Assembly (NCBI GenBank): GCA_028867075.1
Contig: JAGWGZ010000001.1
Span: 26,660 to 90,659, forward strand
DNA length: 64,000 nt
Source: Nanobdellota archaeon
Lineage (GTDB): Archaea > Nanobdellota > Nanobdellia > Pacearchaeales > GW2011-AR1
Reading direction: 5' to 3'
This document shows, piece after piece, positions 8,469-60,387 of this stretch. The position numbers and the translations under genes are program-made. The notes beneath the pieces are model-generated. The model was not told the origin of the DNA. It did not search any database and saw only the letters and a list, made by a program, of their open reading frames with translations. The number at the start of each line of letters is the position of its first letter. The first letter of the stretch is position 1.

Positions 8469-8532
8469 AGGGATTTGAACCCCCGACCCCCGGTTTACAA
8501 AACCGATGCTCTAACCACTGAGCTATAGAGGC
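8460..8532 (-). tRNA. tRNA-Thr (anticodon UGU)
   Basis: Reverse complement folds: acceptor GCCTCTA/TAGAGGC plus U73, anticodon loop TTTGTAA, T-arm GGGGG-TTCAAAT-CCCTC. Confidence 0.8.
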
Positions 8533-8640
8533 ATAAGCAAAATCCACGGTTTTTCTTATCAACTTTTCCCCTACGGTGTCTACGGTTTCGTTCGCTTGAC
8601 TTCCCCATAGGGGAGTTTCCCGCAGGCTTAAATTTTAGAG
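8533..8640 (-). promoter_or_regulatory. long structured 5' leader of tRNA-Thr carrying the conserved AAACCGTAG motifs and a CCCCTATGGGG palindrome
   Basis: In RNA orientation it reads GAAACCGTAGACACCGTAGGGG ... AAAAACCGTGG; the related motif recurs upstream of four other minus-strand tRNAs. Confidence 0.45.
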
Positions 8641-9916: not shown

Positions 9917-9988
9917 TGGTCCCACGCAGAATCGGACTGCGGTCTCGTCCACGTCAAGGACGCGTCTTAGCCACTGGACTATGGGACC
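9917..9988 (-). tRNA. tRNA-Val (anticodon GAC)
   Basis: Reverse complement: acceptor GGTCCCA/TGGGACC plus A73, anticodon stem CGTCC/GGACG with loop TTGACGT. T-loop reads TCCGATT, which is non-canonical. Confidence 0.7.
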
Positions 9989-10073
9989 GCGAGGACACCC
10001 ATCGTTTCCTTCGCTTAATCTTCCTTTAAAAGATTATAAAAATATTTAAATATGAAGCGCATTTAAATCTATC

Positions 10074-20256: not shown

Positions 20257-20427
20257 TGCCCCCGACAGGATTTGAACCTGCGACCCTTAGCTTTCTCCTT
20301 TTGCACGCGGAGGTGCGGAACCGTTTGGGTTCTGTTGCAACTTCCTGTTGGGATGCAGGAGGTGCGGAAACCCGCAGGTGGTTCTGGTTAGAAGGCTAAT
20401 GCTCTATCCAGGCTGAGCTACAGGGGC
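20257..20427 (-). tRNA. tRNA-Arg (anticodon UCU) with a ~96-nt intron after position 37
   Basis: Exons 20389-20427 and 20257-20292 fold into acceptor GCCCCTG/CGGGGGC plus A73, D-arm GCTC/GAGC, anticodon stem TTAGC/GCTAA with loop CTTCTA|A, T-arm GCAGG-TTCAAAT-CCTGT. The intron (20293-20388) interrupts at canonical 37/38. Confidence 0.65.
20293..20388 (-). other. tRNA-Arg(UCU) intron
   Basis: Intervening sequence ACCAGAACCACCTGCGGGTTTCCGCACCTCC...GGTTCCGCACCTCCGCGTGCAAAAGGAGAA with an internal direct repeat TTCCGCACCTCC. Confidence 0.55.
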
Positions 20428-20548
20428 TCATTTTATTCGCCCTTAGTTTTCCTTCTTCCATTTTTACTAAGGGGCTCACTCGCTTCGCTCGTTCACCCTA
20501 CGCTCCTTCGTCGCATAGGGCTACTATAAGTTATGTAAAAGAATGAAT

Positions 20549-26104: not shown

Positions 26105-26175
26105 TTTATAAATTGTAGTTCCTAAGAAGATATGCCCTTGACTGCGGGAATTCATAAAAACCCGCCGGAGGTTTT

Positions 26176-27868: not shown

Positions 27869-27941
27869 TGGCTGCACCAAGAATTGAACTTGGGACCCCT
27901 GCCTCATGAGAGCAGTGCTCTGCCAACTGAGCTATGCAGCC
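27869..27941 (-). tRNA. tRNA-Met/Ile2 (anticodon CAU), elongator-like
   Basis: Reverse complement: acceptor GGCTGCA/TGCAGCC plus A73; anticodon stem CTGCT/GGCAG with loop CTCATGA; T-arm CCAAG-TTCAATT-CTTGG. Confidence 0.75.
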
Positions 27942-28047
27942 GTGTGAAACCTCCTGCGGGTTTCTACAATTTCCAGCGACCCTGCAATTGCAGTGTATAT
28001 TAAAATTAAAAATAAATCCTTTAAAAATCTTTAAAATTTACAGAAAT

Positions 28048-28291: not shown

Positions 28292-29200
28292 CTATTCTAT
28301 CTTTTCCAGACCCCTCATGCTTTTTAATGCAGCCATCAGATTGTCAAATTTCTTTACCGGCTCGCCCAGGGCCCATATCTTGTATTGAAGTTTGAGCTCA
28401 TGGGATTTTTTGTAAGAGCTGATTATGTCCTGCTCTGATATCTTTCTTTTATTATAGGCTATAATGAGATATTCTTCATGGTCTTTAACCCGGAATATTA
28501 TCCTGTTTATGCTTATTTCTTCTATGTCTATGATCTCAATTTTCTTTTTTGAGAGAAGTTCCTTGACTTTATTGAAGAATTTATTATCCTGACTTTTCTT
28601 TTTTGTCGGCTTCTGCGGCCTTTTTATCGGTTTTCTAGGTTTCCTTTCTTGTTCTTCACTTTCAACTGATTCTATCTCTTCGACAGGAGATTTAATTTCA
28701 GTCATTATTTCGGTTATTGCCTCTCTTGCAGGCTCCTGCGCAGTTTCCTCGACATTTAGCTGAATTTCAACTTTTTTAAATTGCGGAATAAAATCCGATT
28801 CCTGCGAGGTGAAGAATCTCCACAGTACCTCTCCGTCTTTTTCAAAAGGGACCGCAAAATCTTTTATGTCCCTCATTGCCACGCGTATTGCAGGTTCAAG
28901 TTCTTTGTCAGTCAGGAATCTCTTTTCTTTCAGGAGCATGAATGCATCTTTTTCCTTGTTTTTCAGGTATTGCGAAAAATTTTCTAACAGAGGTTCCTGA
29001 CCCGGGATAAAATAGAGCGGCGAGCTTCCGACTCTTAGGTTGGAAATCCTGAGTTCCTTATTTGAAAGAAGCTCTGAGAGAAATGCAGAAGCAAAAAGTA
29101 TGCTGAGCCCTGTTTCTTTTGCAATGAAGACAGGCAGACTTGGGCCGTGCATCTTTATCAGATACAATATTTTTTCCCTCATCAATGACGCGTCCACCAT
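28292..29200 (-). CDS. hypothetical protein with basic/acidic low-complexity C-terminal region
   Basis: 302-aa ORF; an N-terminal segment could be a winged helix. No confident family. Confidence 0.35.
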   Translation of the reverse strand: MVDASLMREKILYLIKMHGPSLPVFIAKETGLSILFASAFLSELLSNKELRISNLRVGSSPLYFIPGQEPLLENFSQYLKNKEKDAFMLLKEKRFLTDKELEPAIRVAMRDIKDFAVPFEKDGEVLWRFFTSQESDFIPQFKKVEIQLNVEETAQEPAREAITEIMTEIKSPVEEIESVESEEQERKPRKPIKRPQKPTKKKSQDNKFFNKVKELLSKKKIEIIDIEEISINRIIFRVKDHEEYLIIAYNKRKISEQDIISSYKKSHELKLQYKIWALGEPVKKFDNLMAALKSMRGLEKIE

Positions 29201-29245
29201 TACGCTGGAAAATATTTAAAAGTTATAAAGATTGTTATGTCGCGA

Positions 29246-29264
29246 GACAACCTACGGTTTTCTT
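29246..29264 (-). promoter_or_regulatory. 19-nt element GACAACCTACGGTTTTCTT, identical to the tRNA-Ala 5' leader motif at 38791-38809
   Basis: Exact 19/19 identity between the two loci; lies in the endA to downstream-ORF intergenic region within an inverted repeat GCGAGACAA...TTGTCTCGC. Confidence 0.5.
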
Positions 29265-29345
29265 TAACTCGCAACCTTGCTCGTTGCGGATTTTGCAATT
29301 TTGTCTCGCAAAATTGCTCGGCTTAATTTTCCCTCAATGTAGCCT

Positions 29346-37970: not shown

Positions 37971-38713
37971 ATCTCGGGAAAATAATGAAAAACGGAAAAG
38001 CAATGTTTCTTGCTTACGACCACGGATTGGAACACGGGCCGATAGAATTCAATGACAAAGACGCAAACCCGGAGTATATAATTGATATTGCGAAGAAAGG
38101 AAAATACAATGCATTGATTTTTCAGAAGGGAATCGCGGAGAAATACAATGAGAAAATAAAAAAGTCGAAAATTCCTTTGATAATAAAACTCAATGGAAAA
38201 ACAAATTTGTTTCAGGGCGAGCCTGTTTCGAGGCAGATTTGCAGCGTCAAAGAAGCTCTGGACTTGGGAGCGAAAGCTGTGGGTTATACGATTTATATCG
38301 GAAGCAGATATGAATCTGTTATGCTGAAAGAATTTGATTCAATCGAGGAAGAGGCACATGCAAAGGGTATTCCGGTAATTGCATGGATTTATCCGCGTGG
38401 AAAAAGCGTTGAGAAAAAGCCAGGAGGAGAATTGATGGCTTATGCTGCGCGAACGGGTCTGGAAATTGGAGCAGATATAATAAAAATAAAATACAACGGA
38501 AATGTAAAAGACTTGAAATGGGCAGTTAAAGTCGCCGGAAAGACACAAGTCATGATTGCTGGCGGCGTCCATGAAGACGAGAAGATTTTTCTGAAGCAGG
38601 TTAAGGAGATAATCAACGCTGGCGCAGCAGGCCTCGCAGTGGGAAGAAATATTTGGCAGTCTGGAAATCCGGTAGAACTCTCAGGTAAAATAAAAAGAAT
38701 GATTTGGGATTAA
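37961..38713 (+). CDS. class I fructose-bisphosphate aldolase, archaeal DhnA type
   Basis: 250 aa; N-terminal LAYDHGLEHGP pattern and length of archaeal FbaB/DhnA aldolases; sits in the glycolysis cluster. Confidence 0.65.
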   Translation: MRVNLGKIMKNGKAMFLAYDHGLEHGPIEFNDKDANPEYIIDIAKKGKYNALIFQKGIAEKYNEKIKKSKIPLIIKLNGKTNLFQGEPVSRQICSVKEALDLGAKAVGYTIYIGSRYESVMLKEFDSIEEEAHAKGIPVIAWIYPRGKSVEKKPGGELMAYAARTGLEIGADIIKIKYNGNVKDLKWAVKVAGKTQVMIAGGVHEDEKIFLKQVKEIINAGAAGLAVGRNIWQSGNPVELSGKIKRMIWD

Positions 38714-38784
38714 TGGACTTGCCGAGAATCGGACTCGGATCTTCCGGCTGCGAACCGAATATAATGCCATTATACTACAAGCCC
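38714..38784 (-). tRNA. tRNA-Ala (anticodon CGC) with G3-U70
   Basis: Reverse complement: acceptor GGGCTTG/CAAGTCC (G3-U70 Ala identity pair) plus A73; anticodon stem TTCGG/CCGGA with loop TTCGCAG; T-arm CCGAG-TCCGATT-CTCGG (non-canonical loop); weak D-stem. Confidence 0.65.
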
Positions 38785-38815
38785 ATGTACGACAACCTAC
38801 GGTTTTCTTACACTA
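38785..38815 (-). promoter_or_regulatory. tRNA-Ala 5' leader hairpin motif GAAAACCGTAGGTTGTCG, 6 nt upstream of the mature 5' end
   Basis: Motif shared with leaders of tRNA-Val, tRNA-Met, tRNA-Thr, tRNA-Arg(UCU) and the 29246 element; AT-rich TATA-like box about 60-80 nt further upstream. Confidence 0.5.
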
Positions 38816-38883
38816 ACTTTCCCTTAAGTGTCTATTGAAAAAGTTTATATCCCTGCATTTATAATAATTTACTATAAAAGAAG

Positions 38884-49957: not shown

Positions 49958-51418
49958 TTAGTAGCTCTTTCCAACGTAAACAATTTTATTCGCTTTTCTT
50001 TTGCAGATTATGCATTTTTCATTTGCCCCTGGCTTTTCATTTTTATCTGCCAAAGTTCCCCTGACAGAGGCCCCTATATCTTTTTCTATAATCTCAGCAC
50101 ATTTAATGCCATCATTTTCAGTTGAGCAGAAGCTGATTCTTCCTATCTTCTTTTCTCTTATAGCTTTTTTCAGTTCATCTTTTGTCCTGCAATTTTCTAT
50201 CTTTCCTTTCATAAATGCATCTGCCTTACTTATTAGACGCGCATCATATTCCTCACCTTTCTTTTTCAGTTCGTTCAATTTTGAGAAAGAAACATATTCT
50301 TTTTTTCTGTTATCCCGTGTAAAAATGGATGCTTTTTTTTCTTTCAGTTCTTTTTCCCCTATCTCTATCCTGAACGGCACGCCTTTCAGTTCCCATTCAT
50401 AAAACTTTTCGCCCGGGCGCTTCTCTTCCCGTGAATCAAGCTCAATTCTTAGTCCCTGCTCTTCCAGCATTTCTTTTATTTTTTGCGCTTCTTTGATAAT
50501 CTGACTTTTGTTTTCATTTGTGAATATCGGAATTATCACCGCCTGTATTGGAGAAATGCAGAATGGCATTACCAGTCCTGAATCATCACCGTGTATTGAA
50601 ATTACAGATGCGAGGATCCTTGAAATTGCCGGCCCGTAGCAGGTTTGCCAGACATATTGCTCCTTCCCGTTTTCGTCCCTGAATTTTATGTCAAATGACT
50701 TTGAGAAATTCTGTCCAAGGAGATGGGTTGAGGGCTGCTGGAGAATCTTTCCGTCAGGCATCAGGGTATCAGAGGCGACAGTATACTCTGCTCCTGCAAA
50801 TTTGTCCCATGACGGCCTTTTCATGGGGAGGAAAGGAATCCCGAACCTTTGATGCATTATTTCTTCTGTTGTTTTTATGTCATCCAGAACCTGCCTTTCC
50901 GCTTCTGCTTTTGTCTCGAAGCAATCGTGCGTTTCAATCCAGTAGAACTCGCGCGTTCTTATCAGCGGGCGCGTTGCCTTTGTCTCATAACGAAAAACAT
51001 TTGCCCTTTGATATAATTTTAGAGGCAAGTCTCTCCACGAGCGAATCCAGATTGAATACATCTGGTACATCGCTGTTTCTGAAGTCGGGCGCAGAGCAAG
51101 CTTTTCCTCTCCCTGGACCTTTTCAAGCCAGAAAACTTCAGGAGTGAAGCCTTTGATATGTTCTGCCTCTTTTTTGAAATTTCCCTCGGGAATCACGATA
51201 GGGAAAAACGTGGGCTTGTGCCCTTTTTTTTGGAGAGCTTTTTCATATAAGTCATACATGTTTTCCATTGACATTGCTCCCCACGGTCTTATAACCATGA
51301 AGCCCTTGACCCGGTATCTTATGTCTGTTATTTCTGCTTTTTCAAGAACCTCTGTATACCACTCTGAGAAATCTTCTTTTTTCACGCTCAAACCTTCATG
51401 GGATTTTTGGCCCTTCAT
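49958..51418 (-). CDS. proS: prolyl-tRNA synthetase, archaeal/eukaryotic type with C-terminal zinc-binding domain
   Basis: Class II core; C-terminal CIICKRK...YVGKSY typical of archaeal-type ProRS; 486 aa. Confidence 0.85.
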   Translation of the reverse strand: MKGQKSHEGLSVKKEDFSEWYTEVLEKAEITDIRYRVKGFMVIRPWGAMSMENMYDLYEKALQKKGHKPTFFPIVIPEGNFKKEAEHIKGFTPEVFWLEKVQGEEKLALRPTSETAMYQMYSIWIRSWRDLPLKLYQRANVFRYETKATRPLIRTREFYWIETHDCFETKAEAERQVLDDIKTTEEIMHQRFGIPFLPMKRPSWDKFAGAEYTVASDTLMPDGKILQQPSTHLLGQNFSKSFDIKFRDENGKEQYVWQTCYGPAISRILASVISIHGDDSGLVMPFCISPIQAVIIPIFTNENKSQIIKEAQKIKEMLEEQGLRIELDSREEKRPGEKFYEWELKGVPFRIEIGEKELKEKKASIFTRDNRKKEYVSFSKLNELKKKGEEYDARLISKADAFMKGKIENCRTKDELKKAIREKKIGRISFCSTENDGIKCAEIIEKDIGASVRGTLADKNEKPGANEKCIICKRKANKIVYVGKSY

Positions 51419-60255: not shown

Positions 60256-60387
60256 ATGAAAAAAAACGAAGAAAACGAAGATGAAGACGAGAACGAGGAT
60301 GACTACGAAAACGAAGATGAAGACGAGAACGAGGATGAAGATGAAGACGAATCCAGTGATGGAGATTCAGACAGCTCCTGGGATTGA
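60256..60387 (+). CDS. putative 43-aa poly-acidic peptide (MKKNEENEDEDENEDDYENEDEDENEDEDEDESSDGDSDSSWD)
   Basis: Perfect Shine-Dalgarno AGGAGG 6 nt upstream of the ATG; below the 60-aa ORF-track threshold; contains a 32-nt direct DNA repeat. Confidence 0.35.
   Translation: MKKNEENEDEDENEDDYENEDEDENEDEDEDESSDGDSDSSWD

Follow-up and report, generated by a model that had tools for sequence, protein, structure and literature searches.

A dispersed hairpin element beside endA and in tRNA leaders of a Nanobdellota archaeon, a candidate leader removed at the hairpin foot

The 145-nt spacer between endA and a downstream open reading frame (ORF) of 302 codons, at positions 29201 to 29345 of the window (the whole 64,000-nt stretch of the Nanobdellota archaeon contig JAGWGZ010000001.1 analyzed here), carries a copy of a short hairpin element that also stands in front of tRNA genes in the window. 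We are confident that this spacer copy belongs to a dispersed family, a variant of dispersed structured leader or repeat elements, which, as far as could be checked, appears not to have been described before. The explanation that we favor for the element as a whole, at a little under an even chance, is a cotranscribed leader or punctuation element that would be removed at the foot of its hairpin. The parts of this reading differ in strength: that the element acts as a transcribed RNA, in the window from the minus strand, is probable; that it is removed by cleavage at the hairpin foot is a tentative proposal.

The original prediction pointed to a 19-nt match between the endA spacer and the leader of tRNA-Ala, and the match is exact: GACAACCTACGGTTTTCTT occurs on the plus strand at 29246-29264 and again at 38791-38809, and identity stops at 19 nt. 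No third copy exists in the window at up to three mismatches, and two matches arose in none of 100 dinucleotide shuffles. On the minus strand, the 19-mer reads AAGAAAACCGTAGGTTGTC and is itself a hairpin. In its RNA form, AAGAAAACCGUAGGUUGUC, the core pairs are G3-C19, A4-U18, A6-U16, A7-U15, C8-G14, and C9-G13, with an A5.G17 mismatch and a GUA loop. A search of GTDB species representatives, one genome each, for the exact 19-mer yielded at least 80 loci, with about 4 expected by chance. About 72 of the loci listed are from DPANN (ultrasmall) archaea: Woese-, Pace-, Nano-, or Aenigmatarchaeota or unclassified archaea. Among the matches listed, five bacterial loci have the full architecture described below (two Saccharibacteria, Doudnabacteria, Omnitrophota, and Oscillospiraceae); three further bacterial loci have neither box 1 nor the other parts and resemble chance background. 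The 19-nt core is thus identical across the four archaeal groups and a few bacteria, mostly of the candidate phyla radiation. Copy number per genome, again among the matches listed, reaches at least 10 in DATEAB01 and 5 in JAFCEY01. A viral origin was considered and rejected; the exact 19-mer had no match in IMG/VR.

The element is 45 to 110 nt long and has a common layout on the strand of the downstream gene: a purine box, box 1 (AAGGGAAAGTT, also written (U)AAGGGAAAGUU; family consensus UAAGGGAAAGUU), a linker of 2 to 11 nt, the hairpin, and a 3' flank of 4 to 7 nt. We found this succession in 63 distinct sequences. The 3' flank pairs with the linker, extending the hairpin to about 9 to 13 bp, and falls into discrete subfamilies (TCGC, TTTAY, TTAC, and GTAC) common to several phyla. 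Extra hairpins are inserted between box 1 and the core in the window copy and in L060, L073, L085, L015, L025, and L052 (L numbers designate loci), as well as in bacterial L024, L058, and L042. We built a covariance model, R1, from 69 sequences, defining the family by box 1, linker, an AAGRAAAMC... hairpin, a linker-complementary 3' flank, and the strand of the downstream gene; the endA spacer copy has the exact 19-mer, a box 1 (GAGGGAAAA), and a flank, CUCG(C), complementary to CGAG. No family in Rfam 15 matches the element; a text search of the searchable literature with strings from the 19-mer found no paper, and searches on DPANN ribozymes and RNase P turned up no description of such an element.

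Conservation of pairing, rather than of sequence, supports the extended helix. Linker and 3' flank vary between loci and are complementary within each locus. The mean minimum free energy (MFE) was −7.77 kcal/mol compared with −5.93 ± 0.18 when flanks were permuted among loci, and none of 1,000 permutations reached the observed value. Likewise, the covariation score of alignment A1 was 0.115 versus 0.064, and none of 500 shuffles scored as high. At least 12 different complementary flank pairs occur, including a double change from G-C to U-A between L086 and L032. Diverged copies keep the upper stem through a compensatory A-U to G-C change (for example, AAGGAAACC...GGUGUCC), and their loops include GUA, GUGA, UUA, CUUG, and GAUGG. 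The conserved fold is one uninterrupted helix apart from a single A.G mismatch and, in some copies, a 1-nt bulge. We rejected, as a general feature, another hairpin with box 1 in its loop: the signal is weak (z = −2.3), and only a subset of loci shows it clearly. Inspection gave no convincing register for pairing of box 1 with the hairpin or for a triplex.

The element lies at a nearly constant position relative to the gene that follows. All nine downstream tRNAs begin 4 to 5 nt past the GTC of the element, and in 22 copies the ATG of an open frame lies 4 to 12 nt past it. Overall, the element precedes at least 14 tRNA genes; the downstream ORFs, identified by eye from N-terminal sequences, include EF1A, S17e, S8e, RpoP, TFB, RNase Z, GatE, and DNA ligase, and have no common function. 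With the conserved hairpin enforced, the helix of 9 to 13 bp ends 0 to 2 unpaired nt from the gene start in 27 of 31 copies (0 nt in 13 of them), and all 31 copies have the orientation of the downstream gene. The left junction is variable: TATA-like boxes lie about 12, 22 to 33, or 42 to 55 nt upstream of box 1. The 22- to 33-nt group would put the transcription start at about U/AAGGG, making the element the entire 5' leader. Inserted hairpins shift box 1 and leave the gene start in place (e.g., L085, L015, and L025). A fixed right junction, a variable left junction, and a movable box 1 fit RNA punctuation better than a promoter and favor a role in single-stranded form.

Between 26000 and 39600 of the window, the first genes of transcription units (S17e, the 302-aa ORF, endA, LeuRS, a hypothetical 354-aa ORF, and TIM) are leaderless, with a TATA box 20 to 25 nt ahead of the ATG; the internal operon genes PfkB and DeoC have Shine-Dalgarno sequences. 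The genes for tRNA-Gln, both tRNA-Leu species, tRNA-Cys, and tRNA-Arg(UCG) have no element and an ordinary TATA box at about −30; this spacing suggests that their transcripts, like those of Nanoarchaeum, are leaderless or nearly so.

R1 identified six window copies, each of them on the minus strand, and five of the six precede tRNAs. These five were in the R1 seed alignment, so their scores are not independent, and the endA spacer copy is the sole independent detection. The canonical copy at tRNA-Ala(CGC) (38782-38826; 56.5 bits, E = 4e-9) contains the 19-mer at about −6 to −24 from the tRNA start, followed by the flank GUACAU and then the tRNA +1 (gene at 38713-38785). A diverged copy precedes tRNA-Thr(UGU) (8529-8573; 38.0 bits), which starts 4 nt past the hairpin, and a variant, AAGGAAAC..GUGUCC, precedes tRNA-Val(GAC) (9984-10028; 36.8 bits); the same variant occurs in L045, L035, and L079. 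The diverged copy at tRNA-Met (27939-27971; 18.6 bits) occupies a site where the window has about 45 extra nt between an AT-rich box and the tRNA; relatives L001, L003, and L005 instead carry a TATA box at about −30. A weak copy, which we regard as tentative, precedes an intron-containing tRNA-Arg(UCU)-like gene (20426-20470; 20.7 bits, E = 0.03). That gene (20257-20427, minus strand) has an intron of about 97 nt with two repeats AGAACC...CCGCACCTCC and is detected by Rfam and missed by ARAGORN. By eye, a possible seventh copy, also tentative, lies on the plus strand at 26146-26175 and ends at the GlyRS start codon (GGGAAUUCAUAAAAACCCGCCGGAGGUUUU/AUG); it resembles the tRNA-Met copy and was missed by the model. 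The GlyRS and tRNA-Met leaders form similar hairpins (AAAAACC-CGCCGGA-GGUUUU and AGAAACC-CGCAGGA-GGUUUC), and both contain a perfect GGAGGU even though one precedes a tRNA. A further R1 match, at 50314-50361, falls within coding sequence (by eye, prolyl-tRNA synthetase-like) and was discarded as a false positive.

The spacer copy (29242-29335, minus strand) represents a subtype with an extra hairpin, type B, that is rarer than the canonical one. It begins 10 nt downstream of the endA stop codon and consists of box 1 (GAGGGAAAA, 29327-29335), an inserted hairpin (29271-29317) in which GCAAUUUUGC (29308-29317) pairs with GCAAGGUUGC (29271-29280), the core hairpin AAGAAAACCGUAGGUUGUC (29246-29264), and the 3' flank TCGC; in full, the minus strand reads GAGGGAAAAUUAAGCC, GA, GCAAUUUUGC ... 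GCAAGGUUGC, GAG, UUA, the 19-mer, and UCGC. The inserted hairpin explains why R1 matched this copy only in part (29244-29264; 26.8 bits, E = 0.002). The copy aligns over its full length with those of L060, L073, and L085. RNAalifold analysis of these four type-B copies gave 10 pairs in the inserted hairpin, three with compensatory double changes; the corresponding helix is GCAACUUUGC/GCAAGGUUGC in L060, GCAAUUUCG/CGAAAUUGC in L073, and longer in L085. A metagenome scan with a type-B-specific pattern recovered only the L060 species again (L087).

The repeats that the original prediction described in this spacer are all real, although two of them have another meaning in light of the family fold. 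The inner TTGC-GGATTTT-GCAA hairpin is present at 29284-29298. The 16-nt direct repeats (29268-29283 and 29305-29320, with two differences; a comparable pair arose in just 1 of 500 spacer shuffles) are really the two strands of one 10-bp helix, which look like direct repeats because each strand is nearly palindromic. The 9-bp inverted repeat exists at 29242-29250 and 29301-29309 (the latter arm, GCGAGACAA on the minus strand, had been misplaced by 2 nt), but a perfect inverted repeat of at least 9 bp arises in 126 of 2,000 spacer shuffles and is weak evidence. It joins the loop of the inserted hairpin to the 3' strand of the core hairpin in an alternative fold found in the window and in none of L060, L073, and L085; it is specific to the window and competes with the conserved fold. 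Given these two folds, the spacer copy may be a switch or may be partly decayed. The whole spacer has only a modest folding advantage over shuffled sequence (z = −1.3 on one strand and −2.0 on the other), and 29238-29338 gives z = −2.3. As predicted, the spacer contains no tRNA; a hidden, intron-containing, split, or permuted tRNA was sought in 29201-29345 and rejected, with none found by ARAGORN, at the Rfam gathering threshold, or at Rfam E ≤ 10.

Comparison with relatives indicates how the copy came to lie beside endA. The window and relatives L001, L003, and L005, whose orthologues are 56 to 59% identical to the 302-aa protein, have a common gene order (LeuRS / endA-ORF-S17e-tRNA-Met / GlyRS). 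In the three relatives, the endA-ORF spacer is 32 to 34 nt and without the element: the stop codon is followed directly by TTTATAACTTT, about 20 nt, and the ATG. The window retains this TATA box and its distance to the ATG: TTTATAAC at 29222-29229 (minus strand) lies 21 nt ahead of the ATG at 29200, with the same spacing as at other window genes. The TATA-like box of the original prediction is therefore real and, because it is conserved in the three relatives, very likely the promoter of the 302-aa ORF, outside the element, implying a leaderless mRNA. Because the relatives have a spacer of 32 to 34 nt with the same TATA box and ATG distance, about 100 nt was inserted here, in this lineage alone, downstream of the endA stop codon and ahead of the preexisting TATA box of a leaderless downstream gene.

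Proximity to endA itself is coincidental, because the adjacency is not conserved in relatives or in the closest structural homologues. The clusters of the three relatives have no element; the type-B copies of L060 and L073 adjoin a PCNA-like gene (by eye), and the nearest structural homologues sit beside PCNA or other genes; L035 has a canonical copy in a different spacer of the same cluster, between the 302-aa ORF orthologue and S17e. The proposed tie to endA is thus not supported. Of the original suggestion of a structured RNA or a site shared with tRNA leaders, the shared element and its conserved helices hold up; the endA tie and the signature of an EndA substrate do not. That prediction had been made to depend on conservation of the orthologous spacer. 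The element is absent at this locus in relatives and is conserved as a dispersed family, so absence from the orthologous spacers is beside the point; since these have no insert, we drew covariation from paralogous and xenologous copies.

As for the flanking genes, the identity of endA (29346-29864/29885, minus strand, with a leaderless promoter) is confirmed by Pfam (tRNA_int_endo, 1.5e-26). The 302-aa ORF (28292-29200, minus strand) encodes a protein widely conserved in DPANN (713 homologues), with a charged central region and a weak winged-helix N terminus; its sole Pfam signal, a FaeA-like winged helix (E = 1e-3), is below the Pfam cutoff. This ORF is invariably positioned between endA and S17e.

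A distinct class of loci combines the element with duplicated tRNA ends. In these cassettes, an intact tRNA is followed by 0.08 to 1 kb, sometimes with a small ORF; an 11-nt antisense T-arm copy; a tRNA-type TATA box with transcription factor B recognition element (BRE) 4 to 5 nt before box 1; the hairpin; and the exact last 13 to 25 nt of the same tRNA. Cassettes occur at L029, L086, L080, L041, L023, L055, L067, L010, and L081, with L011 also listed and a nested example in L020; at L071, the cassette duplicates the 5' end of a divergent tRNA on the other strand. From its sequence, the arrangement resembles target duplication or att sites. No model that we tried accounts jointly for the promoter and for both copies, sense and antisense. 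If the element were a novel form of RNA punctuation, a reading that we consider doubtful (below), the cassettes would fit it, with their tRNA-type promoter, element, and exact copy of the last 17 to 25 nt of the neighboring tRNA and with an antisense T-arm copy just upstream.

Other loci show further arrangements of the element. In DATEAB01 (L021, L026, L028, L038, L039, L040, L044, L065, and L066), each of at least 10 copies is followed by a conserved tail of about 40 nt, UUUAUCAUUCCnACGAGUGUCGGCGCUGCUCCUGUCGU; these tails may represent a small-RNA family that uses the element as a leader. An ORF running through the DATEAB01 copies was sought in both sense and antisense directions, and none was consistent. 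L047 has four tandem copies at 40-249 with a 55-nt period, of which only the last, abutting tRNA-Thr, has an intact 3' strand, and L051 has a tandem array of the element at about 2100-2217. In L058, from Saccharimonadales, a copy with two inserted hairpins (2190-2305) lies in the 5' untranslated region (UTR) of ftsA (ftsA Pfam, 8e-32). In L033 (about 1113-1575, in element orientation), the 16S rRNA gene of a member of the Doudnabacteria contains a group I-like intron of about 480 nt at about 788/789, with R/S core motifs; the 5' exon ends in U and the intron in G. The tRNA introns of L055 (tRNA-Phe), L007, and L016, together with sequence downstream in L074, have a common hairpin similar to GAGGAGAACCAAGGUUCUCC, a conserved DPANN motif. 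Apart from the element, the window contains an 18-nt-period tandem repeat, ACGAAGAAAACGAAGATGAAG..., at 60266-60355 (plus strand), presumably encoding an acidic Asp/Glu/Asn-rich protein repeat.

According to the reading that we favor, the element would be transcribed as the 5' leader of the gene it precedes or, in the endA spacer, as part of the endA transcript, where it would be either the 3' UTR or an intercistronic segment. Endonucleolytic cleavage at the hairpin's 3' foot, or 0 to 2 nt beyond it, would then take the element off, yielding either a mature tRNA 5' end or a 5'-terminal AUG for a leaderless archaeal mRNA. Two considerations lead to this proposal. With the genes of the window mostly leaderless, a leader of 45 nt with no Shine-Dalgarno sequence and a stable hairpin at the AUG would have to be removed for expression, and the tRNA copies, too, would require precise cutting; and a cut at the hairpin foot is the simplest single explanation for a right junction that is fixed and a left junction that is variable. 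The cutter might be the RNA itself or a host nuclease that recognizes a 12-bp minihelix, with tRNase Z a candidate by analogy with Haloferax 5S rRNA. A stronger version, which we consider doubtful, makes the element a novel form of RNA punctuation, whether a small self-cleaving ribozyme or the dedicated recognition hairpin for a host nuclease, that makes tRNA 5' ends and leaderless mRNAs, with the cassettes serving production or exchange of tRNA 3' fragments. If it removed itself, the element could spread between a promoter and almost any gene; copies would have multiplied via duplication and horizontal transfer. The endA spacer copy may be an orphan that does no more than put a hairpin and a processing site behind endA.

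Several observations weigh against removal at the hairpin foot. Transcription of the element, its strand, and its cleavage are all things that we infer from sequence. In the spacer copy, the alternative (MFE) fold, at −25.7 kcal/mol, exceeds the family fold in stability (−19.4 kcal/mol). The type-B copies of the window, L060, and L073 stop 1 to 14 nt short of the following gene's TATA box (12 nt in the window) instead of reaching the gene, so leader removal cannot apply simply to the spacer copy; the type-B copy of L085, by comparison, ends 7 nt before an ATG. At about 10 loci, a tRNA-type TATA box lies just 4 to 5 nt ahead of box 1 and would start transcription inside the hairpin. Cleavage would be harmful or pointless in L033, where the copy is 6 nt before the 3' splice site of the group I-like intron in the bacterial 16S rRNA gene, and in L058, where it is upstream of the Shine-Dalgarno sequence in the ftsA 5' UTR. 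G.U pairs, which we tried as a discriminator of strand and of RNA from DNA, gave no signal (22 versus 19), and the sense MFE was lower in just 37 of 64 informative cases; because G.U pairs do not favor the sense strand, the helices could act in single-stranded DNA rather than RNA. tRNase Z cuts after an unpaired discriminator base. The 9- to 13-bp helix fits the roughly 12 bp of a tRNase Z minihelix, but this nuclease is a poor fit because often, as in the 13 of 31 copies counted above, no unpaired nucleotide precedes the gene start. Finally, since a review (PMC6380272) reports that all archaeal genomes examined have RNase P ribonucleoprotein components, tRNA leaders may need no special signal.

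The main rival, which we consider unlikely on balance and yet take seriously, holds that the element is mobile DNA: a nonautonomous mini-element, the end of one, or a small integrating cassette, whose hairpin and linker "guide"/3' flank pairing would operate in single-stranded DNA, as at IS200/IS605 ends, where pairing joins a sequence 5' of the hairpin to the cleavage site at the transposon tip. Its place at gene starts would follow from targeting either tRNA gene ends or DNA that is melted at transcription starts, and the endA spacer copy would be one more insertion. Much of the distribution suits this idea. The element is patchy and lineage specific (it is missing at two orthologous sites from the three closest relatives, and L035 has it in a different spacer of the same gene cluster); it reaches the high copy numbers of DATEAB01 and JAFCEY01, forms the tandem arrays of L047 and L051, and is present in bacteria and within an intron; and its flank subfamilies are common across phyla. 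The lack of strand bias in G.U pairs also fits, as do the cassettes, in at least nine of which a tRNA, 0.08 to 1 kb, and the element are followed by an exact duplicate of the tRNA-terminal 13 to 25 nt (with the nested L020 and the tRNA 5' end on the other strand in L071). On the other side, the element has no terminal inverted repeats, and target duplication is confined to the tRNA-end class, in the up to 8 kb per locus inspected. Informal reading of the nearest ORFs, with Pfam applied to just five upstream cargo ORFs and the ftsA ORF of L058, revealed no transposase, integrase, or reverse transcriptase, and the exact 19-mer is absent from IMG/VR. Random or tetranucleotide-targeted insertion fails to explain a right junction within 0 to 2 nt of a tRNA +1 or ATG, and insertions before EF1A, ribosomal proteins, and tRNAs must permit expression, so that removal at the RNA level is needed again. 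A related proposal, that the two 19-mers of the window are attL/attR-type repeats of a 9.5-kb integrated element near tRNA-Ala, draws on direct repeats 9,545 bp apart, one of which adjoins a tRNA gene. We give it practically no credence and regard it as refuted by housekeeping content and synteny: the interval encodes endA, LeuRS, GAPDH, PGK, PfkB, a 2-hydroxyacid dehydrogenase, and DeoC and no integrase, endA-LeuRS is syntenic in relatives, and the repeat belongs to a multicopy family.

The remaining alternatives are all improbable, in decreasing order as given here. A cis-regulatory 5' leader kept on the RNA might hide a Shine-Dalgarno-like AGGU/GGAGGU, act as a thermometer or a protein or ligand switch, or stabilize the 5' end. 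The 3' strand of the hairpin, GUAGGUUGUC, lies 8 to 13 nt before the ATG and matches 7 of 10 positions of the consensus archaeal Shine-Dalgarno sequence, GGAGGUGAUC, a general consensus that does not derive from the 16S rRNA of this organism; the perfect GGAGGU of the tRNA-Met and GlyRS variants, the bacterial copy in the ftsA 5' UTR, a weak ZTP riboswitch resemblance over the L058 inserted hairpins (24.6 bits against a cutoff of 39), and the two competing folds of the window copy also suit a retained leader. However, the same element precedes the 14 or more tRNA genes, which are untranslated; its downstream genes share no function, unlike riboswitch regulons; the ZTP match is subthreshold and confined to lineage-specific inserts; and the spacer copy is upstream of the next gene's promoter. 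Marginally more improbable is the original view of a discrete small structured RNA or of a regulatory or processing site tied to EndA or RNase P. Adjacency to endA, the motif common to tRNA leaders, and the folding of 29238-29338 relative to shuffled sequence are in its favor, but that adjacency is not conserved, the conserved fold has no bulge-helix-bulge (two 3-nt bulges and a 4-bp helix), C/D or H/ACA boxes and significant Rfam matches are absent, the 145-nt spacer has no promoter or terminator that would set a separate gene apart, and RNase P recognizes the tRNA body rather than the leader. A double-stranded-DNA element, such as an alternative core promoter or an operator for the winged-helix 302-aa protein, is very improbable. 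Copies without inserts do place box 1 about 30 to 40 nt before the gene start, where BRE/TATA would sit, the spacer contains GCAAnnTTGC palindromes, and the downstream ORF has its weak winged helix-turn-helix match. But the TATA position is filled by a variable linker that is not AT-rich, the linker of 2 to 11 nt and inserted hairpins of 25 to 60 nt shift box 1 without shifting the gene start, canonical TATA boxes lie further upstream, and bacterial copies exist where archaeal promoters are not used; moreover, the flanks vary yet stay complementary, which a protein-binding site does not require, and the GCAA/TTGC repeats pair with each other and show compensatory changes in other genomes.

We also checked the element against specific known identities. 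Paired 3-nt bulges of an EndA bulge-helix-bulge substrate occur in neither the family fold nor the MFE fold of the window. A C/D or H/ACA guide small RNA was rejected, direct reading showing no boxes on either spacer strand. At Rfam E ≤ 10, the spacer matched only snoR86 (17.6 bits; cutoff, 40) and sn2417 (14.7 bits; cutoff, 80), and we did not confirm a K-turn at the inserted hairpin's GA/GA junction. Known self-cleaving classes (hammerhead, twister, twister-sister, pistol, hatchet, HDV-like, hairpin, and glmS) gave no match at E ≤ 10 in the spacer, the tRNA-Ala leader, L007, or L058, a result that speaks to those classes and does not in itself exclude catalysis. The ZTP riboswitch (RF01750) was rejected because its match is limited to L058, is subthreshold, and lies upstream of ftsA; window copies gave no match. 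A BRE/TATA core promoter was rejected because the distance from box 1 to the gene varies and genuine TATA boxes lie 12 to 55 nt upstream of box 1. An apparent likeness of the 19-mer to helix 45 of 16S rRNA and its 3' end, and another of box 1 to GGAAAGU in RNase P CR-I, seem too weak to build on.

Whichever reading holds, a conserved noncoding sequence in the tiny genomes of DPANN archaea is unlikely to be neutral, and this one abuts tRNAs and core genes such as those for EF1A, ribosomal proteins, RNA polymerase, and TFB. If it is removed at the hairpin foot, the element would explain how organisms with leaderless mRNAs tolerate or exploit insertions between promoter and gene, and it would constitute a new route of 5'-end maturation in addition to RNase P. 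As mobile DNA, it would represent a transposable element aimed, unusually precisely, at transcription starts and tRNA ends. Annotation pipelines currently overlook the element; R1 makes it possible to model.

Among known systems, the ends of IS200/IS605 elements and of their miniature derivatives, palindrome-associated transposable elements, have a similar strand-specific subterminal hairpin, a sequence 5' of the foot complementary to tip nucleotides, and tolerance of many contexts. In contrast, informal inspection showed no tnpA or tnpB near the element, and there is no second similar hairpin at the other end; its complementarity is contiguous with the stem instead of forming a separated guide/cleavage-site pair, and its tRNA-end class duplicates the target, which IS200/IS605 elements do not. 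CRISPR repeats cut by Cas6 are also conserved hairpins, and in both cases the 3' foot would set the 5' end of the next RNA; however, the element has no spacer array and no 8-nt handle, and the tandem copies of L047 have a 55-nt period with identical filler. The sole CRISPR-family match in Rfam is weak, at chance level, and elsewhere in L058. The element of L033 recalls the P9 hairpin of a group I intron, since it forms the final hairpin and lies 6 nt ahead of the G that ends the intron at 16S position 788/789, but archaeal copies, at only 45 to 110 nt, have no P3-P8 core, and no copy reaches the Rfam group I threshold.

Nanoarchaeum equitans, a related organism, reportedly transcribes leaderless tRNAs at a fixed distance from the promoter and has split tRNA genes with complementary leaders. 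Similarly, element-free tRNA genes here have a TATA box about 25 to 30 nt before +1, and some stand-alone tRNA 3' fragments have a conserved leader. Unlike split tRNAs, these fragments duplicate the end of an intact neighboring tRNA and have no complementary 5' half, one universal leader precedes them, and there is no bulge-helix-bulge.

Closer parallels are found among processed repeats and tRNA-like punctuation. Neisserial Correia/NEMIS repeats, cut by RNase III, and the REP/BIME and ERIC sequences of enterobacteria are cotranscribed, processed dispersed repeats. Like them, the element is short, multicopy, hairpin forming, patchy, and located between promoters and genes; unlike them, it is archaeal, has no terminal inverted repeats and mostly no target duplication, keeps one orientation with its 3' end 0 to 2 nt from a gene start, and has a 19-nt core identical across phyla. 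A tRNA-like structure upstream of Haloferax volcanii 5S rRNA is said to be processed by tRNase Z, and mitochondrial tRNA punctuation and MALAT1-mascRNA are further examples of tRNA-like punctuation. In these systems, as with the element, a structured module lies directly 5' of a functional RNA and its 3' boundary sets the 5' end of that RNA, and the element helix of about 9 to 13 bp is near the 12-bp stack of acceptor stem and T arm. The differences are that the element has no cloverleaf, T loop, or tRNA score and often no unpaired base at the discriminator position, that it has a conserved purine box and also precedes protein genes at the ATG, and that cleavage here is a prediction. By analogy, then, the element would work most like tRNA-like punctuation or like the processed dispersed repeats.

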